Source of the DNA: a phage
Length of the DNA: 64,000 nucleotides
NCBI GenBank assembly: GCA_011939005.1
Contig: GCA_011939005.1_4858.1
Strand: one strand, 5' to 3'
Positions 1 to 24,063 of the stretch are shown here, in pieces. The stretch's first letter is position 1. Each line of letters opens with the position of its first letter. A program made the position numbers and the translations under genes. The notes under the pieces were generated by a model. The model was given only the letters and a program-made list of their open reading frames with translations, had not been told where the DNA came from and ran no database searches.

Positions 1-88
1 TCCCGTTACTGGCTTTCTGTAACGCAGTAAAGGCACTGTCTGCATCATTACGCTCTAATGCACTTTTAATGGTTTGAAATAAAGACAT
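1..88 (-). CDS. partial CDS, N-terminal ~29 codons; gene continues beyond window start
   Basis: Minus-strand ATG at ~86-88 preceded by GAGGAG-like RBS; frame MSLFQTIKSALERNDADSAF... stays open to the window edge. Confidence 0.3.
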   Translation of the reverse strand, partial: MSLFQTIKSALERNDADSAFTALQKASNG

Positions 89-272
89 GGTACTGCACTC
101 CTCGTTAGGTTAAAAGTCAAGGTCAACTACAAAACAAAAGGATGTCGGTATCCTACGGATACCTCCGTTTATGTTCGCATCCAATACATAAACCCCCTTA
201 CCCCCGTACTCTCCTCGATTGTCAAACGATGAGATCGAAACGTAAAAAAGTGTAGTATGAGAGGAGGGTGGT

Positions 273-1205
273 ATGAACAAATCTAAGTCAGGGTTGCACA
301 TCTTCTCGATAGGTATCGTCGCGGAAGATAAACCTCGTGGTGCCACTCGAGTTAAAGTCATCCCTATCGAAGTTAACTTTATTAATCCAACAGCTGTCGA
401 TGCAACAGAGACGCCTGTAGAGAAGCAACACAACAGTTTAAGTGGTACTGACAACCTTACTGTAAAGCAAGGTAATGCCATCACTGCAAAATGGATGAAG
501 TCCAACAGCAACCGGGTTAACCCTCCGGATGTGAAAAAAGAAGACTACGTAAGAATCTGGCGTATCGGTGAAACCGATATGTACTTCTGGGAAGATTTAA
601 ACAACAGTAACGTTAAGCGACTGGAAGATGGGGTATACGCCTGGTCTGCTGACCCAGTAAACCAGATGGCCGATGACCTCTCTAACGCCTACGTACTGAA
701 TATCTCCCCGATGGATGGTCACGTTACTTTACGTACCAGTATGACTAACGGCGAGAAAAATGCGTATTTGCTCCAGCTGAATACCCGTGACGGGTTTTGC
801 CAGTTAGTGGATGACGAAGGGCGTAAGTTCTACCTCAACTCTCCAGAGGATGACTTAGGGTTTGAAAACGCCTGCCGGTCGAAGATTAATATCAATAAAG
901 AGGACGCTTTCATTTATGCTAAACGTTCTATTAATCTCGAGACAAAGACGATTAACGAGAAGTGCGAAACTCGCAACTCTACAGCGTCGAAAAACATGGC
1001 ATGGAAGACTGAAGACTGGAAGACCACATGCCCAACGAATCTATTTACCGGTAACCTGGAAGTAGGTAAAGATTTCCTCTATAACGGCAAAGGTGAAGGT
1101 AAGGGCACATTCACAGTTACCGAATCGGTTATCGGCGGCATCACCTTTACTCTTCACGTACATACTGGCCATGGTCCGGGCAACGACACCAGTACACCAC
1201 ACTAA
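273..1205 (+). CDS. hypothetical protein (310 aa), possibly structural
   Basis: Long ORF with strong RBS (GAGAGGAGGG) 5-8 nt upstream of ATG; no recognisable motif. Confidence 0.6.
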   Translation: MNKSKSGLHIFSIGIVAEDKPRGATRVKVIPIEVNFINPTAVDATETPVEKQHNSLSGTDNLTVKQGNAITAKWMKSNSNRVNPPDVKKEDYVRIWRIGETDMYFWEDLNNSNVKRLEDGVYAWSADPVNQMADDLSNAYVLNISPMDGHVTLRTSMTNGEKNAYLLQLNTRDGFCQLVDDEGRKFYLNSPEDDLGFENACRSKININKEDAFIYAKRSINLETKTINEKCETRNSTASKNMAWKTEDWKTTCPTNLFTGNLEVGKDFLYNGKGEGKGTFTVTESVIGGITFTLHVHTGHGPGNDTSTPH

Positions 1206-1412
1206 GTTATTTACGTGTGTGGGGTATAATGTGACAATAAACCCCTAACTGTAACGATAACCCGAATCGCTTGTGCACAGTTAGCCACTTTTTTCGCACA
1301 AAAGCCGGTTTATTGTCAACTAATTTACGAGTCGGGGCAGTTAATATGCCTTGAAGTACAAGTAGTTGAACATAGGGTTCTTCTGCTATCATTTGTTAAT
1401 GGAGATAAGTAA

Positions 1413-1622
1413 ATGAGCATTCGTGAAATCACCGCAGGCAGCGACGTTTCTGGTCTGGTAGAAGCAGGCACCGTTCAGGTTTCTGGACTGAGCACCGTTA
1501 CCGAAGTTACCGAAGCGCTGGCTAAGAAAGCCGAAGCTGAAGGCGGCGTAGCATTTAAAGTTACCGCTTGCGGCGGCAACAACAAAATGTTCGGCAACGC
1601 CATCTATTACGTAAACGCGTAA
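1413..1622 (+). CDS. small DUF1471 (YdgH/BhsA/McbA-like) domain protein, no signal peptide
   Basis: 69 aa; RBS GGAGA; C-terminal pattern VSG...ALAKKAEAEGG..FKVTA.GGNNKMFGNAIYY matches the DUF1471 consensus as I recall it. Confidence 0.45.
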   Translation: MSIREITAGSDVSGLVEAGTVQVSGLSTVTEVTEALAKKAEAEGGVAFKVTACGGNNKMFGNAIYYVNA

Positions 1623-1649
1623 TCGGCCTGCAGGCAAAAAAAGATATAG

Positions 1650-1695
1650 GTACCCTACTCCCGTTGGGAGTAGGGTTTACCTTTTATTTTTTTCG
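1650..1695. terminator. bidirectional rho-independent terminator
   Basis: Stem CCCTACTCCC / GGGAGTAGGG with 4-5 nt loop, flanked by A-run upstream and T-run downstream; lies between convergent genes. Confidence 0.7.
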
Positions 1696-2946
1696 TGCTT
1701 TGTAGCGATGCATTTCAACAAATGGCTTACCCCAAGCCCCGAAAGGCCCGACGATTGCCTGCGCGTCGTTTACCAAATTCTGGTTATACCAACGCGCGTT
1801 CCCCAACAAAAAGTTTTCCCGGTCGAAGAATGTGGTATTAAAGACCCACTCCCCTTCTTCCCAGGTCGGCCAGTACCCTACACATTTACCAATACGGTTA
1901 AAGATAGGACCTAGCGTCTTCTTCCCATCTGGGTCAGTCGGGTCTTTTAAATAGAACCGGCCCCAGATAGCGTTGTGGCTTATTCCGTGAATCTCTTTTT
2001 CGAGATACGGGTTGTCTATCGTAAAGATAAACGAGGATTCGTGCGTCAGCAACGCTTTTAACGTTTCTGAGTTACGAATACGTTGAACGGACGTAGGCGT
2101 ACTTAAATCACCTACACCGATGGCGTCCCAATCGTAATAGCGACGGGTTTCCAATACAATCTTCGCCACGCTAAGGTTTGGCAGACTCAGCATAATCGCA
2201 CGGTCGCTGAAATAGCCCTGCGGTGGCAACCAATGCAGAATACCCCCGATGACGAACCCAACGGTTTTCCCTGTAATGGAATCGGGTAAGGTCAACATTA
2301 ACGAAGAATAGTAATCTCGCGTAGTATCGAGTTTGTTCATCGTTAAACCGGATATGGGGTAAGTCTTCACTTTACCAATATTCGCCATCACTAGACAGCC
2401 GATGTCGGGTGTGTTGGCTCTCCGCACGATGTTACCAGCACCGGTTAAGCGAACGCCCACAGGGTCAGATTGGTGCGGTACCCACTGACCGTTGATGTTG
2501 TACAGTACCCCGGTACGGTATTTTTCTTTCCACTCATCGTCGCAGACTACAACAACGTCGTGCGCATCATCAGGGTTGAAGTCCTGAGTGTAATGGTACC
2601 CAGGAGGGCACAGGTGCGTTTCTACGGGCACATCTGCATTAATAGACTGGTAATGTGCCTCAGCGAATTCTAACTTCGGTAGGCCTTTCCCAAGCGTTGG
2701 AATTGCGATTCCTGACTTGGTGTTTAACCAATCTTGCAACGTGTCCGTACGGTTTTGTAAATCAGCCAGGTGATACTGGCTATAGAAGGTATATTCGGCA
2801 CCTAGTGCTTCTAGTCCTACTTCGAAAAAGTGGTAGTTAGCACAAAGGGTATTTAAGGGCTGCGTGACATCGATGGTTCCCCAAGTTCGGGTGTCTCGAG
2901 AGAAGCCAAAAGCGCTGTCGGCCCGCACTTGATAAGCAGTAGTCAC
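1684..2946 (-). CDS. hypothetical protein (420 aa), likely virion/baseplate-associated
   Basis: Long ORF; apparent GTG start with GAGGA RBS; divergent from the fiber operon. Confidence 0.55.
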   Translation of the reverse strand: MTTAYQVRADSAFGFSRDTRTWGTIDVTQPLNTLCANYHFFEVGLEALGAEYTFYSQYHLADLQNRTDTLQDWLNTKSGIAIPTLGKGLPKLEFAEAHYQSINADVPVETHLCPPGYHYTQDFNPDDAHDVVVVCDDEWKEKYRTGVLYNINGQWVPHQSDPVGVRLTGAGNIVRRANTPDIGCLVMANIGKVKTYPISGLTMNKLDTTRDYYSSLMLTLPDSITGKTVGFVIGGILHWLPPQGYFSDRAIMLSLPNLSVAKIVLETRRYYDWDAIGVGDLSTPTSVQRIRNSETLKALLTHESSFIFTIDNPYLEKEIHGISHNAIWGRFYLKDPTDPDGKKTLGPIFNRIGKCVGYWPTWEEGEWVFNTTFFDRENFLLGNARWYNQNLVNDAQAIVGPFGAWGKPFVEMHRYKARKK

Positions 2947-3013
2947 TGGCTGTTTCCTCTAAGGATTCGGGTCATAGTATGAACTCGACGCCCTCAGAGA
3001 AAAGGAGTGTAAA

Positions 3014-6000
3014 ATGGCTGTCGTCCCTGACCCGCACTATCAAGAACCGGGGAATATGCAGACCGGTGAAGCGGTAACGCCGATCGGTACTAAGTACCGG
3101 ATGCTGTTCCCCGCACACGCCCCCTTTTATACCACATCCCTGGTGGTCAAGAGTGGCGGCAAGAAATTAACATTAGGTGATGATTACGTCATCACCCATG
3201 CGTACGTTACGGGCATGGCACGCACTGGCCATGTTTGTCACGGCGGCGTGTGGATTACCAACCCGAAATATCAGAGTGGCTTTACACTCGATTACCACGC
3301 AATTGGCATCGGTGAAGCCACTGCAGAAATGATCGCCGCAGAACGAGAAGCGAATAAAGATCGCTATCCCGTGGACTGCCAATGGGATAACGTCATTGGG
3401 GATTTATATTTCCCACCGGTCGATATTAAGTTCGATTGGGAAAACTGGCGTGGCGAATCTGAGTTGATGGAAGCCATTGTTGCGGTTGGTGCTAAGCTCG
3501 GTGAAGCGATCAGTCGCGTTGACCCGATTGCTCGTAACACGTTAGACCTTCAATATCGCGCCGGCGTCACGCTTATCACGTCCGAGCAGTATGCGACGTA
3601 CGACGGTACTGGCGGCTACACGTATAACGCGTCACGTCGTCGTTATTCGTTATCTTACCAGAACACGACATTCGATGCGTATTCGTTAGCGGTAAAATAC
3701 CGTTTACCGAGCATTCCACCGGAAACAACGTTGAACCCAGGCGAGTTGATCGATTGGATGCTCTGTTACGCAAACGGTGGGACAAGTATCCTGCGTCTTC
3801 AGTTGAAGCAACGCGCGATTTATCTTACCTTAACGACAGCGATTGGTTCCGGTTCGTCCAATTACAGCTATACGTTGACGACTGGCCTGACTGATACCGA
3901 GTTGGCGGGTGAGGTTGAGTTTAGCGTGGTCAGACGCGAAGGTAACGGCGTTTACGACATCACCGTTAAAACAAGCAAGCAAACCGTTAACTACAGCTTT
4001 AACGTTGACAACCCACCGAGCGAATTTGCACCAGGGTATCAGAAAACTGATGTCGCAAAATGGTTGAAGTTTAAATCGGGCGTCAACCTAAACTGGTGGG
4101 CAGGTGAGAACGATTACGTCCAGATTCGTTCATTACCAGGCGCACCGGCACCTGACGTTAACAATGACGTGTACCAGCTGCTGGTAAAATATCACCAGAT
4201 TGTCGATAAACTGTACCGTGATGCACCGGCACACACACACGTGCCGCGCAAGGATAACCCGCATCGCGATTCGTGGGGCGCAATCCGTGCTTTGGAGAAT
4301 AACGGTATTGCTTCGGACGCGACACTGGTATACGGAAAAACGCAACCGCAGCTGACAGATTACGTTAACAATCTGTTGCCGAAACTGTCAACGCTGGCGA
4401 ATAAGCTTTTACGTTTACCGGCGGCTGCACAGTCTATCATCGGCACGTTCGGCATGAAGCCTGGCCTGACTTCAATAACGTCAGCAGTGGGTACCGATGA
4501 GTCTGAAGGCGTGGGTGCACAATTCACGGTTGACCCGAGGGTTATCCGTTTTATTGGCCGCGATTCGCAAACCGTTAACGCCGGGAACAATCCGATTACA
4601 TGGCAAGGTGGGGCTAACCAACTCATCCTTTATCCGGATTCCCGTGGATTGGAGTTCAACGGTAAGAAACTGTTGGACCCTACTACGGTCGGGCCGTACC
4701 TGCCGGGTAACGAATCAGGTGGTGATGGACTGTTTTACGGAACATCCACAGCTACTGTAACCATTAACGGTAACGGTATTCAGTCTGTTCCGTTCATTTG
4801 TACCTTTGTTCCACCGGAGTCCGATGACCTTGGCCTGATGGCTGTCCGTTTGTTGGCTACTGAATTCGGCGATCGTGAGGACTTGGCCGCAACGCCGGCA
4901 CTCATCAAGAAATTGGATCAGCAGTTTACGGGCAAGTTGGTTGCCGTTAAATCGTACATCAACGACATGCCACTGACGAGTTCTATTTACATCGATAAAA
5001 CTAACTTCGGCTTATCGAACGTACAGAACATCCCAGATGTACAATTGCCGATTTCCCCGCTCCAACAAGCTGAGCTGGACAAGTATGCAGTCGTCGGTCA
5101 CAAACACACTTCTGCCGCGTTCGGGATTAAGCGTGCAACAACGACGGAGTTCGGTTTAGTACAGTTCGGCACCGCGGTTGACGATGCCACTCTGGCATTA
5201 GACGGTGGTGAGGTCATCCGACAGGCGGACGCCATCACAGAGATAGAGAAGGTTGCGAAGACAGTCGACTCTGGTGCTTCAATCAACATTATTCGTTACG
5301 GTTTACCCGGCACGGATATCATTGAAAACGGCATCACTTACACCGACTGGATGGTTACTATTAAAGCGAACGATTATTTCGTTGGTCGCGAGTACAAAGT
5401 ACCTCTCTCCACATTTAACTTGGCGGAGCTATTCCCAGCGACGCACGAAGATGCTGAGTTTGGCGTGTATGTTGACGCGGCGGGCGATGACGGCAAGTAC
5501 ATTATCTACGAAAATCCAAACACGGCAGAAACTGAGACGATGACCAAAATAGGTTCCATCATCACCAGTGAAACCGGTGTGGTTTTTGTAGAAATCCGCA
5601 ACGTGACGCGTTTAGGTGAGTTCCGTGAATTAGGCGAGCATATCGAGGATGATAACGCCCATATTCGTCGGGGCATGACGCAAGCTGAATTCGGATTTAC
5701 TTACGGTACGGGCGGGCCTGTGTGGTCCACGGGCGCACCGGGTACAAAACGTATAGATGCTGATTGGCGTTACGCGCAGGCTAGCGGCTATACGCCTATG
5801 TTGAAAGCGGACTACGATCCGGCTGCTGATAAATGGACGTTTAAAACAACCAGTTTATCTGTAACCGATTATCGTTTTGTCCACAACACGTTCCCGATGT
5901 TCCAGAATAACGGCATTACCGCAACGTGGACACCTTTAACCGCAACAGCGGACAGTGTGCTAGAAACGGTAATTGGGTGTTGTCATCACTCGGCCACGTT

Positions 6001-17399: not shown

Positions 17400-17410
17400 C
17401 TTGTTTACGA

Positions 17411-17450
17411 GCCGGACTATGTTTATGGACATAGTCCGCTCGTTCTACTT
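17411..17450 (+). terminator. hairpin, possible terminator/attenuator between fiber operon and Cys-peptide operon
   Basis: 9-bp stem CGGACTATG / CATAGTCCG, T-run a few nt downstream. Confidence 0.4.
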
Positions 17451-19426: not shown

Positions 19427-20341
19427 ATGACAGATCAAGTAGAATCCAGGATCTCGTCTGAACTGTACGACAAACCGTCAATTCTGTCGGTTGTCGCAAC
19501 TTCTAAGTGTAACTTAGACTGTAGCTTCTGTGGAGGGGCTTATTACATGGATAGAGAAGATACTTCTCGTGAGTTTCAACGTGAAGAGATTCTCTCGATT
19601 TTAGAGAAGAATCCGGATATCGGTGAGATTCATTGGACGGGCGGTGAGCCGCTGTTAGCGCAGCGCAAGATTGAAGACTTCGTGAACGAGTTGAAGGAGT
19701 CTCATCCGAACCTCCGTCATCACATGTACACCAACGGTTTAAAGATGCGTAAATCACATCTGCCGTTGCTGAAACAGTTCGACCTTATCTTTGTGTCCAT
19801 TGACGGCTACAAGAAGTCGGAACGTCCGTTTATGAACTTTGTAAACGGTGGTAATCACGAAGCGCTGGAAGTGCTGTACGAGCTGGACAACTATTACACC
19901 TGGGGTGTGATGACGCGTGACCAGTTAGGTGATAAACGCTGGTACGAAGATTTCATCGAGCTGCACCGAGCAATCTATCATTACCGTCCAGGTGGTATGT
20001 CGTTGCTGTTTGATGCGATGATGCCGAAACCGTTATCGCCAGACCACGTCATGAACTTCATGTACGGGTATTGGAAAATACTCGACAATATCGAACGCCT
20101 TAACATGCAGAACGATTCTGAATGTGGGCTTGCGATCAGTAAAATGTTCGATACCGAGTGCAACACGTGCAGTGAAGTGCTGTGGCTTAACGCCGACGGT
20201 ACGCAGGAGCAAATTCAGAACGCCCCAGAGATATTGGAAGTCGGCTGTAATCGCCTGGCGCGTTCTATCGGCGTTGATGCGTATAACTACATCAACCGTG
20301 TAATTTCTGCTAAGCGTAAACGGGCGGCGAACAATGAGTAA
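19427..20341 (+). CDS. radical SAM enzyme (about 304 aa)
   Basis: C-x3-C-x2-C (CNLDCSFC) about 28 aa from the internal ATG start (RBS GGAG); GGEPLL motif; extra C-terminal cysteines (CGLA...CNTC...C) suggest an auxiliary cluster. Confidence 0.75.
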   Translation: MTDQVESRISSELYDKPSILSVVATSKCNLDCSFCGGAYYMDREDTSREFQREEILSILEKNPDIGEIHWTGGEPLLAQRKIEDFVNELKESHPNLRHHMYTNGLKMRKSHLPLLKQFDLIFVSIDGYKKSERPFMNFVNGGNHEALEVLYELDNYYTWGVMTRDQLGDKRWYEDFIELHRAIYHYRPGGMSLLFDAMMPKPLSPDHVMNFMYGYWKILDNIERLNMQNDSECGLAISKMFDTECNTCSEVLWLNADGTQEQIQNAPEILEVGCNRLARSIGVDAYNYINRVISAKRKRAANNE

Positions 20342-21662
20342 TAGCGAACAGCAAATCCAGTACACACCACGCACGTATCAGGTTGTGACTAACCTGTCAT
20401 GTAACCTGGACTGCGAATACTGCTACGAGCGTAAATATCCACGCAATAACAAAGTAGCTGACGTGATTGATTTTATCCACGCTTGCTTCGAGCGCGATAA
20501 AGATATCCCGAACGTTGAAGTCATCATCGATATCATCGGTGGTGAGCCGTTCATGCAGCCTAAACTTCTTTTGGCGGCCTTTGAAACCGCAGAGAAGTTA
20601 TGCGCAGAACACAATCGCCCGTATATGTTCAGTATCTCCACGAACGGTACACTTCTGGACCGTCCGCTGAACAAAGAAATTATCGAGCGCTGGAAAGACA
20701 AACTGTCTATTGGGGTCTCCATCGATGGTTTACCTGAAGTCCATGACAAATATCGTATCTTTACCACGACGCGTGAAGGGTCGTACGAAGCTGCGGTACG
20801 TGGTTACAATTATCTGAAGAGTGTTGGCATCGCTGAACTGGGCGTAAAGGCGACGTTTACGATCGATACATTGCCGCACTATGCCGCCAGCATGAAATCG
20901 TTAATTGACATGTCCGGCGGTGGTACCATTTCTGGTAACGTAACGTACGAAGATATCCTACCGCGCCATATGGCGTTGGATATCGCGAACCAGATGATGG
21001 ACGTGATGGACTACTGGATTGAGAAGGGTCTGCACACCAACCCGCGTAACACGATTACACACATCATCCCGGATGGCCTGAACTTTATGGCAACTTGGGA
21101 CCCGGATTGGCGTGACAAACTCTTACATGACGACTCTGTTCGTCTCGACCCAGAACGCCTGAAACCGTACTGCGGTACGTTGACGCACATGACCTGTCTC
21201 GGCTTTGATCGCAAGATTTACGGTTGTAACCGTTTCATGTCCACGGTAACTTCCCGTTCTGCTGTAGCAGAACTGGTCGGTCGTGAGTTTGTGAGCCTGG
21301 ACGGTGGTAAGCTGTTAGAAGAGATTCAAACGCAGTACACCAACTACCCAGAAACCTGTTTAGGGTGTCCGATGAAACACAGTTGCGGTAGCTGCGCGGC
21401 AGCATCGTACGAAAACGGTGAAGGTACACTGGAAGACCGTAAAGCGTATCATGCCGAGCGTCGTCAGTGTGGTTGGACTACTGCGAAGCTGATGGCGGCA
21501 GAATATTGGTATCAGAAAACTGGTACGACCCGCGCATCAGATTTGCATGATAAATCCATGTGCTATTGTTCACGTTGTGTACGCCAACGTGCTGAAGCAG
21601 AAAAATTACAAAACGGAGCCCAGAATGAAGTCAATACTGATTCACAATTTTACGAAGCGTAA
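20334..21662 (+). CDS. radical SAM enzyme with SPASM-like C-terminal domain (442 aa)
   Basis: CNLDCEYC near N-terminus; C-terminal cysteine cluster C-x2-C-x5-C-x2-C plus upstream Cys; start ATG overlaps stop of the upstream radical-SAM gene (translational coupling). Confidence 0.8.
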   Translation: MSNSEQQIQYTPRTYQVVTNLSCNLDCEYCYERKYPRNNKVADVIDFIHACFERDKDIPNVEVIIDIIGGEPFMQPKLLLAAFETAEKLCAEHNRPYMFSISTNGTLLDRPLNKEIIERWKDKLSIGVSIDGLPEVHDKYRIFTTTREGSYEAAVRGYNYLKSVGIAELGVKATFTIDTLPHYAASMKSLIDMSGGGTISGNVTYEDILPRHMALDIANQMMDVMDYWIEKGLHTNPRNTITHIIPDGLNFMATWDPDWRDKLLHDDSVRLDPERLKPYCGTLTHMTCLGFDRKIYGCNRFMSTVTSRSAVAELVGREFVSLDGGKLLEEIQTQYTNYPETCLGCPMKHSCGSCAAASYENGEGTLEDRKAYHAERRQCGWTTAKLMAAEYWYQKTGTTRASDLHDKSMCYCSRCVRQRAEAEKLQNGAQNEVNTDSQFYEA

Positions 21663-23447: not shown

Positions 23448-23571
23448 GGTTGTTTCCTTATAGTAGGTTTGTGGTGCATACCAAATCATTCTAAAAAATA
23501 CATAGTGGGGTTAATATGACAGTAAAGTTGGCTGTTAAACGAGAAAGTTTTTACCACTGAAAGGATACCTT

Positions 23572-24063
23572 ATGAAACGTCTATTTATCGTATTCGCGAT
23601 TATAAACCTGTTGGTCGGTTGTGTTCAGTCGCCAAACAACATCGGGCAATTTAGCGCCACGCCAGTAAAGAATCACGACTTGGTGATTTATACATGCACA
23701 GGAACGCAGGAGAAGTTTGTAGACTACCGTCCGGTTCTGGACAACCTACAAATGATGCCGCGGTCAGTAACAGTATTGGATGTGGGTGCAAGCTGGGTAG
23801 CAACGTGGGACGGTGGCAAACTTGAGTCACCGATGATGTTTAAAGATACAATTGGCAAAATCGACGGGAATGTTAACACCACCACAGGTGAGCGTTATTA
23901 CCGTATTAATAAAACCGTAAACGATAGCCCCACTTACTCTTTTTCGGATGTGAACCCGTATACCGGCGAAGGTAAAGGGATGACATTCTTTCGCTGCAGC
24001 AGCGGGTTTATCGGTGAAGTTCCTACCCCGATTACGATTGTTCCGTTAGAAGAAAATAAATAA
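23572..24063 (+). CDS. predicted lipoprotein (163 aa)
   Basis: N-terminal signal peptide with lipobox (LLVGC); followed by GNRA-loop terminator. Confidence 0.6.
   Translation: MKRLFIVFAIINLLVGCVQSPNNIGQFSATPVKNHDLVIYTCTGTQEKFVDYRPVLDNLQMMPRSVTVLDVGASWVATWDGGKLESPMMFKDTIGKIDGNVNTTTGERYYRINKTVNDSPTYSFSDVNPYTGEGKGMTFFRCSSGFIGEVPTPITIVPLEENK

Follow-up and report, generated by a model that had tools for sequence, protein, structure and literature searches.

In enterobacteria, DUF1471 proteins belong to the cell envelope, are abundant, and are induced by stress. BhsA (YcfR/ComC), YbiJ, and McbA (YbiM) are single-domain periplasmic members of the family in Enterobacteriaceae, and SrfN (2ma8/2jna), YahO (2ma4), and domains I and III of YdgH/SssB (2m2j, 4evu) are Sec-exported and periplasmic. 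The domain has been reported to be exclusive to Enterobacteriaceae genomes, and one family member, SrfN, binds sulfated polysaccharides (PMC4092069). A second point of reference is phage phiKZ, in which the monomeric spike tip gp163.1 is bound to the spike in the virion structure (PMC13250141).

The phage DNA analyzed here, a stretch of 64,000 nucleotides referred to as the window, was 98.5% identical over its first 3 kb to the Salmonella jumbo phages SEGD1 and SPN3US (genus Seoulvirus, of the phiKZ-related lineage). The protein encoded by the small open reading frame under study was identical in sequence to SPN3US gp172 (SPN3US_0172, RefSeq YP_009153466), and this name is used below. Features of the locus and other elements of the window are listed in Table 1. 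In SEGD1, the match to gp172 ended at residue 63. Positions 1–3000 of the window were matched in short pieces (40 per place) by the records of SPFM1, 5, 7, 9, 10, 12, 14, and 15 (LR535901, LR535903, LR535904, LR535907, LR535908, LR535911-LR535913), in which gp172 genes were truncated or chimeric (61 aa); these records look like indel-rich assemblies rather than true variants.

Table 1. Positions, strands, and basis of the features discussed in the text (window coordinates).
Feature	Position	Strand	Basis or remark
gp173, central baseplate spike (cell-puncturing device)	273..1205	+	phrog_3216 baseplate
Spacer, spike gene to putative gp172 promoter	1206..1319	+	Alignment of seven orthologous spacers
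Degenerate second motif copy TTTAC...TA(T/A)ATG	1209-1230	+	Directly after spike stop codon
Conserved spacer block GTTAGCCACTTTTTTCGCA	1280-1298	+	Alignment of orthologous spacers (L003-L007, L013)
Promoter-like element CTAATTTACG-N16-TATG	1320..1348	+	65 nt upstream of ATG; conserved upstream of orthologs
Shine-Dalgarno GGAG	1401..1404	+	8 nt before ATG, read from sequence
In-frame TAA	1410-1412	+	Immediately 5' of gp172 ATG, read from sequence
gp172 CDS, leaderless DUF1471 (BhsA/YbiJ/McbA-like) domain	1413..1622	+	69 aa + stop
Antisense ORF, 82 aa (rejected)	1389..1637	-	Spans and is longer than gp172 gene
Bidirectional intrinsic terminator common to gp172 (+) and gp171 (-)	1636..1693		Terminator scan; A-run 1636-1642, 11-bp GC-rich stem 1652-1676, T-run 1682-1693
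gp171, tail-associated protein, convergent with gp172	1684..2946	-	ORF; phrog_3337; SPN3US_0171
gp163 (radical SAM protein 1)	20334-21662	+	Matched to SPN3US by length and position
TTTAC-N14-17-TATG copies	1324-1348, 17404-17427, 23550-23574	+	Motif search
TTTAC-N14-17-TATG copies	58325-58302, 48549-48526, 30580-30555, 23526-23501, 38980-38957	-	Motif search

A profile-HMM search with Pfam PF07338 matched gp172 over nearly the full profile (43.5 bits versus a cut-off of 27, E 3.3e-11), and its orthologs scored 50–57 bits. Scores against the NCBIfam equivalogs BhsA (NF047859, 39.4 bits versus 90), McbA (NF040473, 40.9 bits versus 110), YbiJ, YhcN, YahO, and BsmA all fell far under the respective cut-offs. 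gp172 is a DUF1471 domain and the ortholog of no named bacterial protein. An AlphaFold2 model calculated with 28 phage homologs as input was confident (pLDDT 88) and showed a beta-alpha-beta-beta order; its structure matches were YdgH, SrfN, YahO, and RcsF, in agreement with the mixed alpha+beta fold of PF07338. The only cysteine, Cys53, was not conserved. The domain itself is already on public record, since RefSeq names gp172 'DUF1471 domain-containing protein'. Other depositors labeled orthologs 'putative multiple stress resistance protein BhsA' or 'bhsA'. Because the BhsA and McbA cut-offs were missed, some phage records are too specific in using the label 'bhsA', which should not be equated with a stress or biofilm gene in therapeutic candidate phages. 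The antisense ORF was rejected as a gene: it is broken in Caitlin and in the metagenomic relative L012, and the Pfam match and published peptides back the plus strand instead. Its presence is explained by a highly biased sense strand that avoids the rare codons TTA, CTA, and TCA, and it could misdirect gene callers.

Since TAA occupies the codon right before the ATG of gp172, a signal peptide is impossible, and an alternative start or N-terminal extension that would add a leader is ruled out. The N-terminus was hydrophilic, whereas a Sec signal is stated for 'most' PF07338 members. A hydrophobic N-terminal segment was found in 0 of 28 phage homologs versus 90 of 101 full-length bacterial representatives, in which it typically ended in an AxA-type site. 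These results bear out the original prediction of a host-type (enterobacterial) DUF1471 domain encoded without a signal peptide. Bacterial relatives, which measured 78–92 aa with the domain beginning near residue 27–35, were reached by searching 1.84 billion representatives exhaustively with a profile; a word-indexed search returned phage relatives only. In the profile search, four phage clusters scored 109–121 bits and bacterial BhsA-like proteins at most 71 bits, leaving a gap of 38 bits. The nearest bacterial proteins were BhsA/YbiJ/McbA-like and shared 42–56% identity across the mature domain. On the basis of this identity and the gap between clusters, a recent host-to-phage transfer was rejected. 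gp172 is therefore in effect a mature BhsA-like domain plus Met, of old rather than recent acquisition.

The reported confinement of DUF1471 to Enterobacteriaceae genomes did not hold, since approximately 60 jumbo-phage genomes, all of 197–251 kb, encoded the domain. Their hosts (Erwinia, Salmonella, Escherichia, Cronobacter, or Proteus) were all Enterobacterales, a range that mirrors that of the DUF1471 family. An NCBI TPA entry, 'DUF1471 domain-containing protein [Salmonella enterica]', on a 23-kb contig was of the leaderless phage type (phiEaH2/SPAsTU type) and probably stems from jumbo-phage DNA present in a bacterial assembly, not from the chromosome.

The 5' neighbor of gp172, gp173, is co-directional and homologous to the phiKZ gp164 spike (PDB 6orj/9xph, E 3e-27). 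At the C-terminus it could be aligned to the Mu gp45 puncturing-device apex, HxH motif included (E 4e-4). gp173 joins a phiKZ gp164-like N-terminal part to a Mu gp45/P2 gpV-type apex (codons 243–310) with a terminal LHVHTGHG (HxH metal site); a separate PAAR tip in phiKZ versus an own apex in the SPN3US type looks like a modular spike-tip swap within the chimallivirus group. The 3' neighbor, gp171, is convergent, essential, and tail-associated (PMC5105663). The gene had been described as lying between divergent structural genes, which is incorrect. The order spike, DUF1471, convergent gp171 was fixed in Seoulvirus, Erskinevirus, Machinavirus, Derbicusvirus, and metagenomic relatives, with a small leaderless DUF1471 gene at the exact slot in SPAsTU, phiEaH2, Caitlin, Parshik, CR5, and three metagenomic relatives. 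In every SPN3US-like genus sampled the slot was occupied; the allele varied, the presence did not. A near-confinement to Seoulvirus seen with tblastn was a sensitivity artefact, overturned by synteny and by queries with other allelic types. The slot was empty in Vibrio, Aeromonas, and Agricanvirus relatives, and a check of Vibrio phage pVa-21 showed no DUF1471 remnant there. In phiKZ-like phages the slot holds the PAAR-motif protein gp163.1.

The promoter-like element upstream of gp172 has the pattern AAnTTTAC-N16-TATG and, if functional, would place the transcription start at G1348, giving a 65-nt leader. It resembles the architecture of phiKZ middle promoters, which carry AAanTTACc centered near -24 and in some cases TATG at the start site, and which are served by the phage's own RNA polymerases (PMC4666361). 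TATG is also the core of phiKZ late promoters (PMC4666361, PMC7598289). The window contained eight copies of TTTAC-N14-17-TATG versus approximately three expected, at least six of them directly upstream of ORF starts in short intergenic regions, and the middle/late regulon in phages of the SPN3US type could be mapped with this motif. Sigma-70-like promoters numbered 0 versus 4.3 expected in positions 1–3200. Among the papers searched, none reported a transcriptome or experimentally located transcription starts of an SPN3US-like phage. In Erwinia phages, a GC hairpin and T-run preceded the second motif copy in the spacer, and the spike–gp172 spacer might hold a short separate transcript. A structured RNA or riboswitch was rejected, as neither the 207-nt spacer nor the leader showed a significant fold (z -0.7 and -0.4). 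An Rfam scan gave no credible match, its sole entry being EBER2 on the terminator hairpin (17.7 bits versus a cut-off of 200).

The terminator folded strongly on both strands (-33.2 and -29.5 kcal/mol; z -4.8 and -4.9), and its hairpin was retained in relatives despite changed stem sequences. The claimed flanking terminator was thereby confirmed, and gp172 has the terminator of its own that is expected of a moron. The claim that the gene is monocistronic also stands, at the level of probability, given the conserved promoter-like element: gp172 probably forms its own transcription unit. Control of this unit by a phage polymerase is plausible, and its timing would be middle or late.

Within allelic types, dN/dS values of 0.10–0.35 indicated purifying selection on the DUF1471 gene, and the gene tree was discordant with those of the flanking genes. 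Relative to the window, SPAsTU showed 75% identity in the spike gp173 and 85% in gp171 versus 43% in the DUF1471 protein, while the corresponding values for Caitlin were 62, 65, and 78%. Between Caitlin and Parshik, two members of the same genus, they were 80, 72, and 46%. Identity switched at the gp172 start codon and again past the stop codon, and the coding sequence has therefore been swapped between lineages as a cassette. Two allelic types were distinguished, each present in Salmonella and in Erwinia phages, and the type varied independently of the spike and gp171 genes on either side.

Codon usage set gp172 apart from the other genes of the window. Its fraction of enterobacterial optimal codons (Fop) was 0.90 versus a window median of 0.55, and the excess over the expectation from amino-acid composition (+0.30, z 5.2) was the largest among 70 window genes. 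A higher z was reached only by gp141, a gene 4.5 times longer. This head protein is among the most abundant virion proteins, with an SC/M of 9.39 and more than 300 copies per capsid. Because gp141 and gp143 rank high, the codon index tracks abundance in an SPN3US-type phage. All gp172 orthologs showed elevated Fop (0.65–0.86 versus 0.55–0.60 for neighbors). The gene for gp163, a presumed non-virion enzyme, had the third-highest codon z in the window (3.7), suggesting that it is highly expressed. The cassette exchange, the codon optimization, and the recognition that a phiKZ PAAR protein holds the same slot are new in this analysis.

In published mass spectrometry of CsCl-purified SPN3US virions, gp172 was identified with 100% probability from four unique peptides and six spectra (81% coverage, SC/M 0.86), compared with SC/M values of 0.93 for the portal, 0.74 for gp171, and 0.23 for the spike gp173 (PMC5694885). 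It was described as the smallest virion protein and low in abundance, was outside the set of head-assigned proteins, and was undetected in 47(am1) particles; the authors left its virion status undecided (PMC5694885). Since gp172, of 7 kDa, yields only four usable tryptic peptides, spectral counts underestimate it.

gp172 can securely be described as belonging to a leaderless, phage-specific DUF1471 subfamily that is fixed beside the spike gene in jumbo phages of Enterobacterales, expressed by the phage program, under strong selection for efficient translation, and recombinationally mobile. Beyond this, we infer the class and timing of its promoter, a location in the tail or baseplate, and any role at the host envelope. 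The interpretation to which we assign the highest probability, roughly 0.4, is that gp172, a BhsA-like domain of ancient capture, is produced in the cytoplasm and acts as a tail or baseplate accessory of the virion. The mature part of a BhsA/YbiJ/McbA-type periplasmic protein would have been captured long ago with removal of the Sec signal peptide, and the gene would then have become fixed in the spike and baseplate module of SPN3US-like Enterobacterales jumbo phages. It may be transcribed alone from a phage-RNA-polymerase promoter of middle/late type, with transcription ending at the strong bidirectional terminator, and would be translated very efficiently in the cytoplasm, the site of virion assembly. 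At least part of the product may be incorporated into or bound to the virion, most likely at the tail or baseplate. The particle, and not Sec, would in this manner bring an envelope-type domain, possibly polysaccharide- or envelope-binding, to the surface or periplasm of the host, and this would account for the loss of the signal peptide.

Consistent with a virion accessory are the missing leader, the fixed slot, the virion peptides, the exclusion of gp172 from the head-assigned set, the essential tail neighbor gp171, and purifying selection, as well as the phage-type promoter element in a region devoid of sigma-70 promoters and the polysaccharide binding of SrfN. The precedent of phiKZ, in which the small gene next to the spike encodes the spike-bound virion protein gp163.1, points in the same direction. 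Against it, the codon bias implies an excess of protein over the need of a low-copy virion component, so that the six virion spectra could represent carry-over, and the failure to detect gp172 in 47(am1) particles also counts against it. The uncoupling of the allele from spike and gp171 argues against a tight lineage-specific structural interface. Moreover, the Mu gp45-type apex of the SPN3US spike makes a tip cap unnecessary, and the solved phiKZ and Goslar virions are from phages that carry no DUF1471 gene and hence provide no structural precedent.

The main rival to the virion-accessory interpretation is that gp172 is an abundant non-structural cytoplasmic protein, acting as a stoichiometric binder or decoy of a host or defense factor or otherwise in host takeover, whose detection in virions reflects carry-over. 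We regard this as possible but rather doubtful. A codon-optimization excess larger than in the most abundant head proteins, with optimization elevated in the orthologs as well, would fit such a role, as would the own promoter-like element and terminator and the exchange of the coding sequence independently of its structural flanks, a pattern typical of accessory and counter-defense genes. The six spectra, and zero in one mutant preparation, are also in keeping with it. However, the gene lies inside the baseplate and fiber module in every genome examined, cytoplasmic action is known for no DUF1471 protein, and the coverage and identification probability in CsCl-purified particles were high; with four usable peptides, the protein is also undercounted by spectra. 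It is distinctly improbable that gp172 is an exapted envelope-stress domain carried as cargo of the contractile tail, on or near the spike, and injected into the periplasm. As a mimic or competitor of the host's DUF1471/RcsF-type proteins, it would there dampen envelope-stress signaling, or else bind envelope polysaccharide at the onset of infection, and an arms race over the host target would preserve the two allelic types; injection on puncture would be a Sec-independent route and would explain the missing leader. Slightly lower still is the chance that gp172 serves spike, baseplate, or fibers as a chaperone or assembly factor and is mostly released once they are assembled. Its size and position between spike and tail/fiber genes and its trace, variable level in particles agree with this function, yet chaperones normally co-evolve with their clients and the gp172 allele is uncoupled from spike and gp171. 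Extreme codon bias and a separate promoter would moreover be unusual for a factor needed in catalytic amounts, and the fold has no known chaperone relatives.

Only a slender chance is given to accumulation in the cytoplasm followed by extracellular action after lysis, for example by coating debris or neighboring cells against unproductive adsorption of progeny. High predicted expression without an export signal, an envelope-type fold with polysaccharide binding in one family member, and the loose association with purified particles are compatible with this scenario, which is wholly inferential and has no DUF1471 precedent. Least probable of all, and very unlikely, is a moron that alters host biofilm or stress physiology during infection, as suggested by homology to BhsA/McbA-type proteins and by the compact unit with its terminator. 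A leaderless product cannot enter the BhsA-type compartment, the periplasm, of an intact cell, and no evidence pointed to a biofilm or stress effect in the host. A host-type sigma-70 promoter was not found, the element present being of phage-polymerase type in a strictly lytic, nucleus-forming lineage with its own polymerases. The gene is conserved over four genera rather than patchy, its slot is constant across the SPN3US-like genera sampled, and it scores under every NCBIfam equivalog cut-off; purifying selection and detection of the product in purified virions (PMC5694885) likewise speak against a moron. The original prediction of a moron or auxiliary gene accordingly survives in its second half only: an auxiliary gene is possible, as the coding sequence is exchanged independently of its structural neighbors.

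Long retention of a leaderless DUF1471 copy by a phage lineage offers an independent handle on the binding partner of the domain. If gp172 is truly virion-borne, it would exemplify a host periplasmic domain that arrives at the envelope on a phage tail and not via Sec. Otherwise, it is a small protein with very high predicted expression in a model jumbo phage for which amber mutants are available.

In comparison with known systems, gp172 shares with its best-scoring relatives BhsA, YbiJ, and McbA the core G-x-V-S...G, L..KA...GA, GGNN...G-x-A-x-x-Y and the beta-alpha-beta-beta fold. It differs from them in being phage-encoded and reduced to the mature domain of 69 aa without a signal peptide, in forming a separate cluster, in having a phage-type promoter element, and in its occurrence in virions. 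It likewise lacks the leader of the Sec-exported SrfN, YahO, and YdgH/SssB. The periplasmic domain of RcsF (2y1b, 9biy) matched gp172 in fold at 11% identity, but gp172 has neither the RcsF lipobox nor the disulfide cysteines essential for RcsF signaling. Long DUF1471 paralogs of Erwinia phage Wellington (186 aa, BFVD A0A345BLJ6) and the metagenomic L012 (187 aa) are leaderless like gp172 and carry, unlike gp172, a low-complexity, acidic, Ala/Thr/Ser-rich tail of approximately 120 residues that is probably disordered. In L012, the long gene (4296-4859, +) is a second copy directly 3' of the short one, in the gp172 slot, and the short DUF1471 proteins of this branch end in acidic tails too.

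The positional analog is phiKZ gp163.1, a minor virion protein and PAAR spike tip whose small gene lies directly 3' of the homologous spike gene. Its PAAR fold (PF05488) is unrelated to DUF1471; a profile search gave no PAAR match in gp172, position alone being common to the two, and no PAAR homologs were detected in SPN3US-like phages. A role of gp172 as a PAAR replacement that caps the spike was not supported, since the fold differs and the spike has its own HxH apex. Whereas the gp163.1 gene abuts the phiKZ spike gene, gp172 follows its spike gene after a 207-nt spacer that contains its own promoter-like element.
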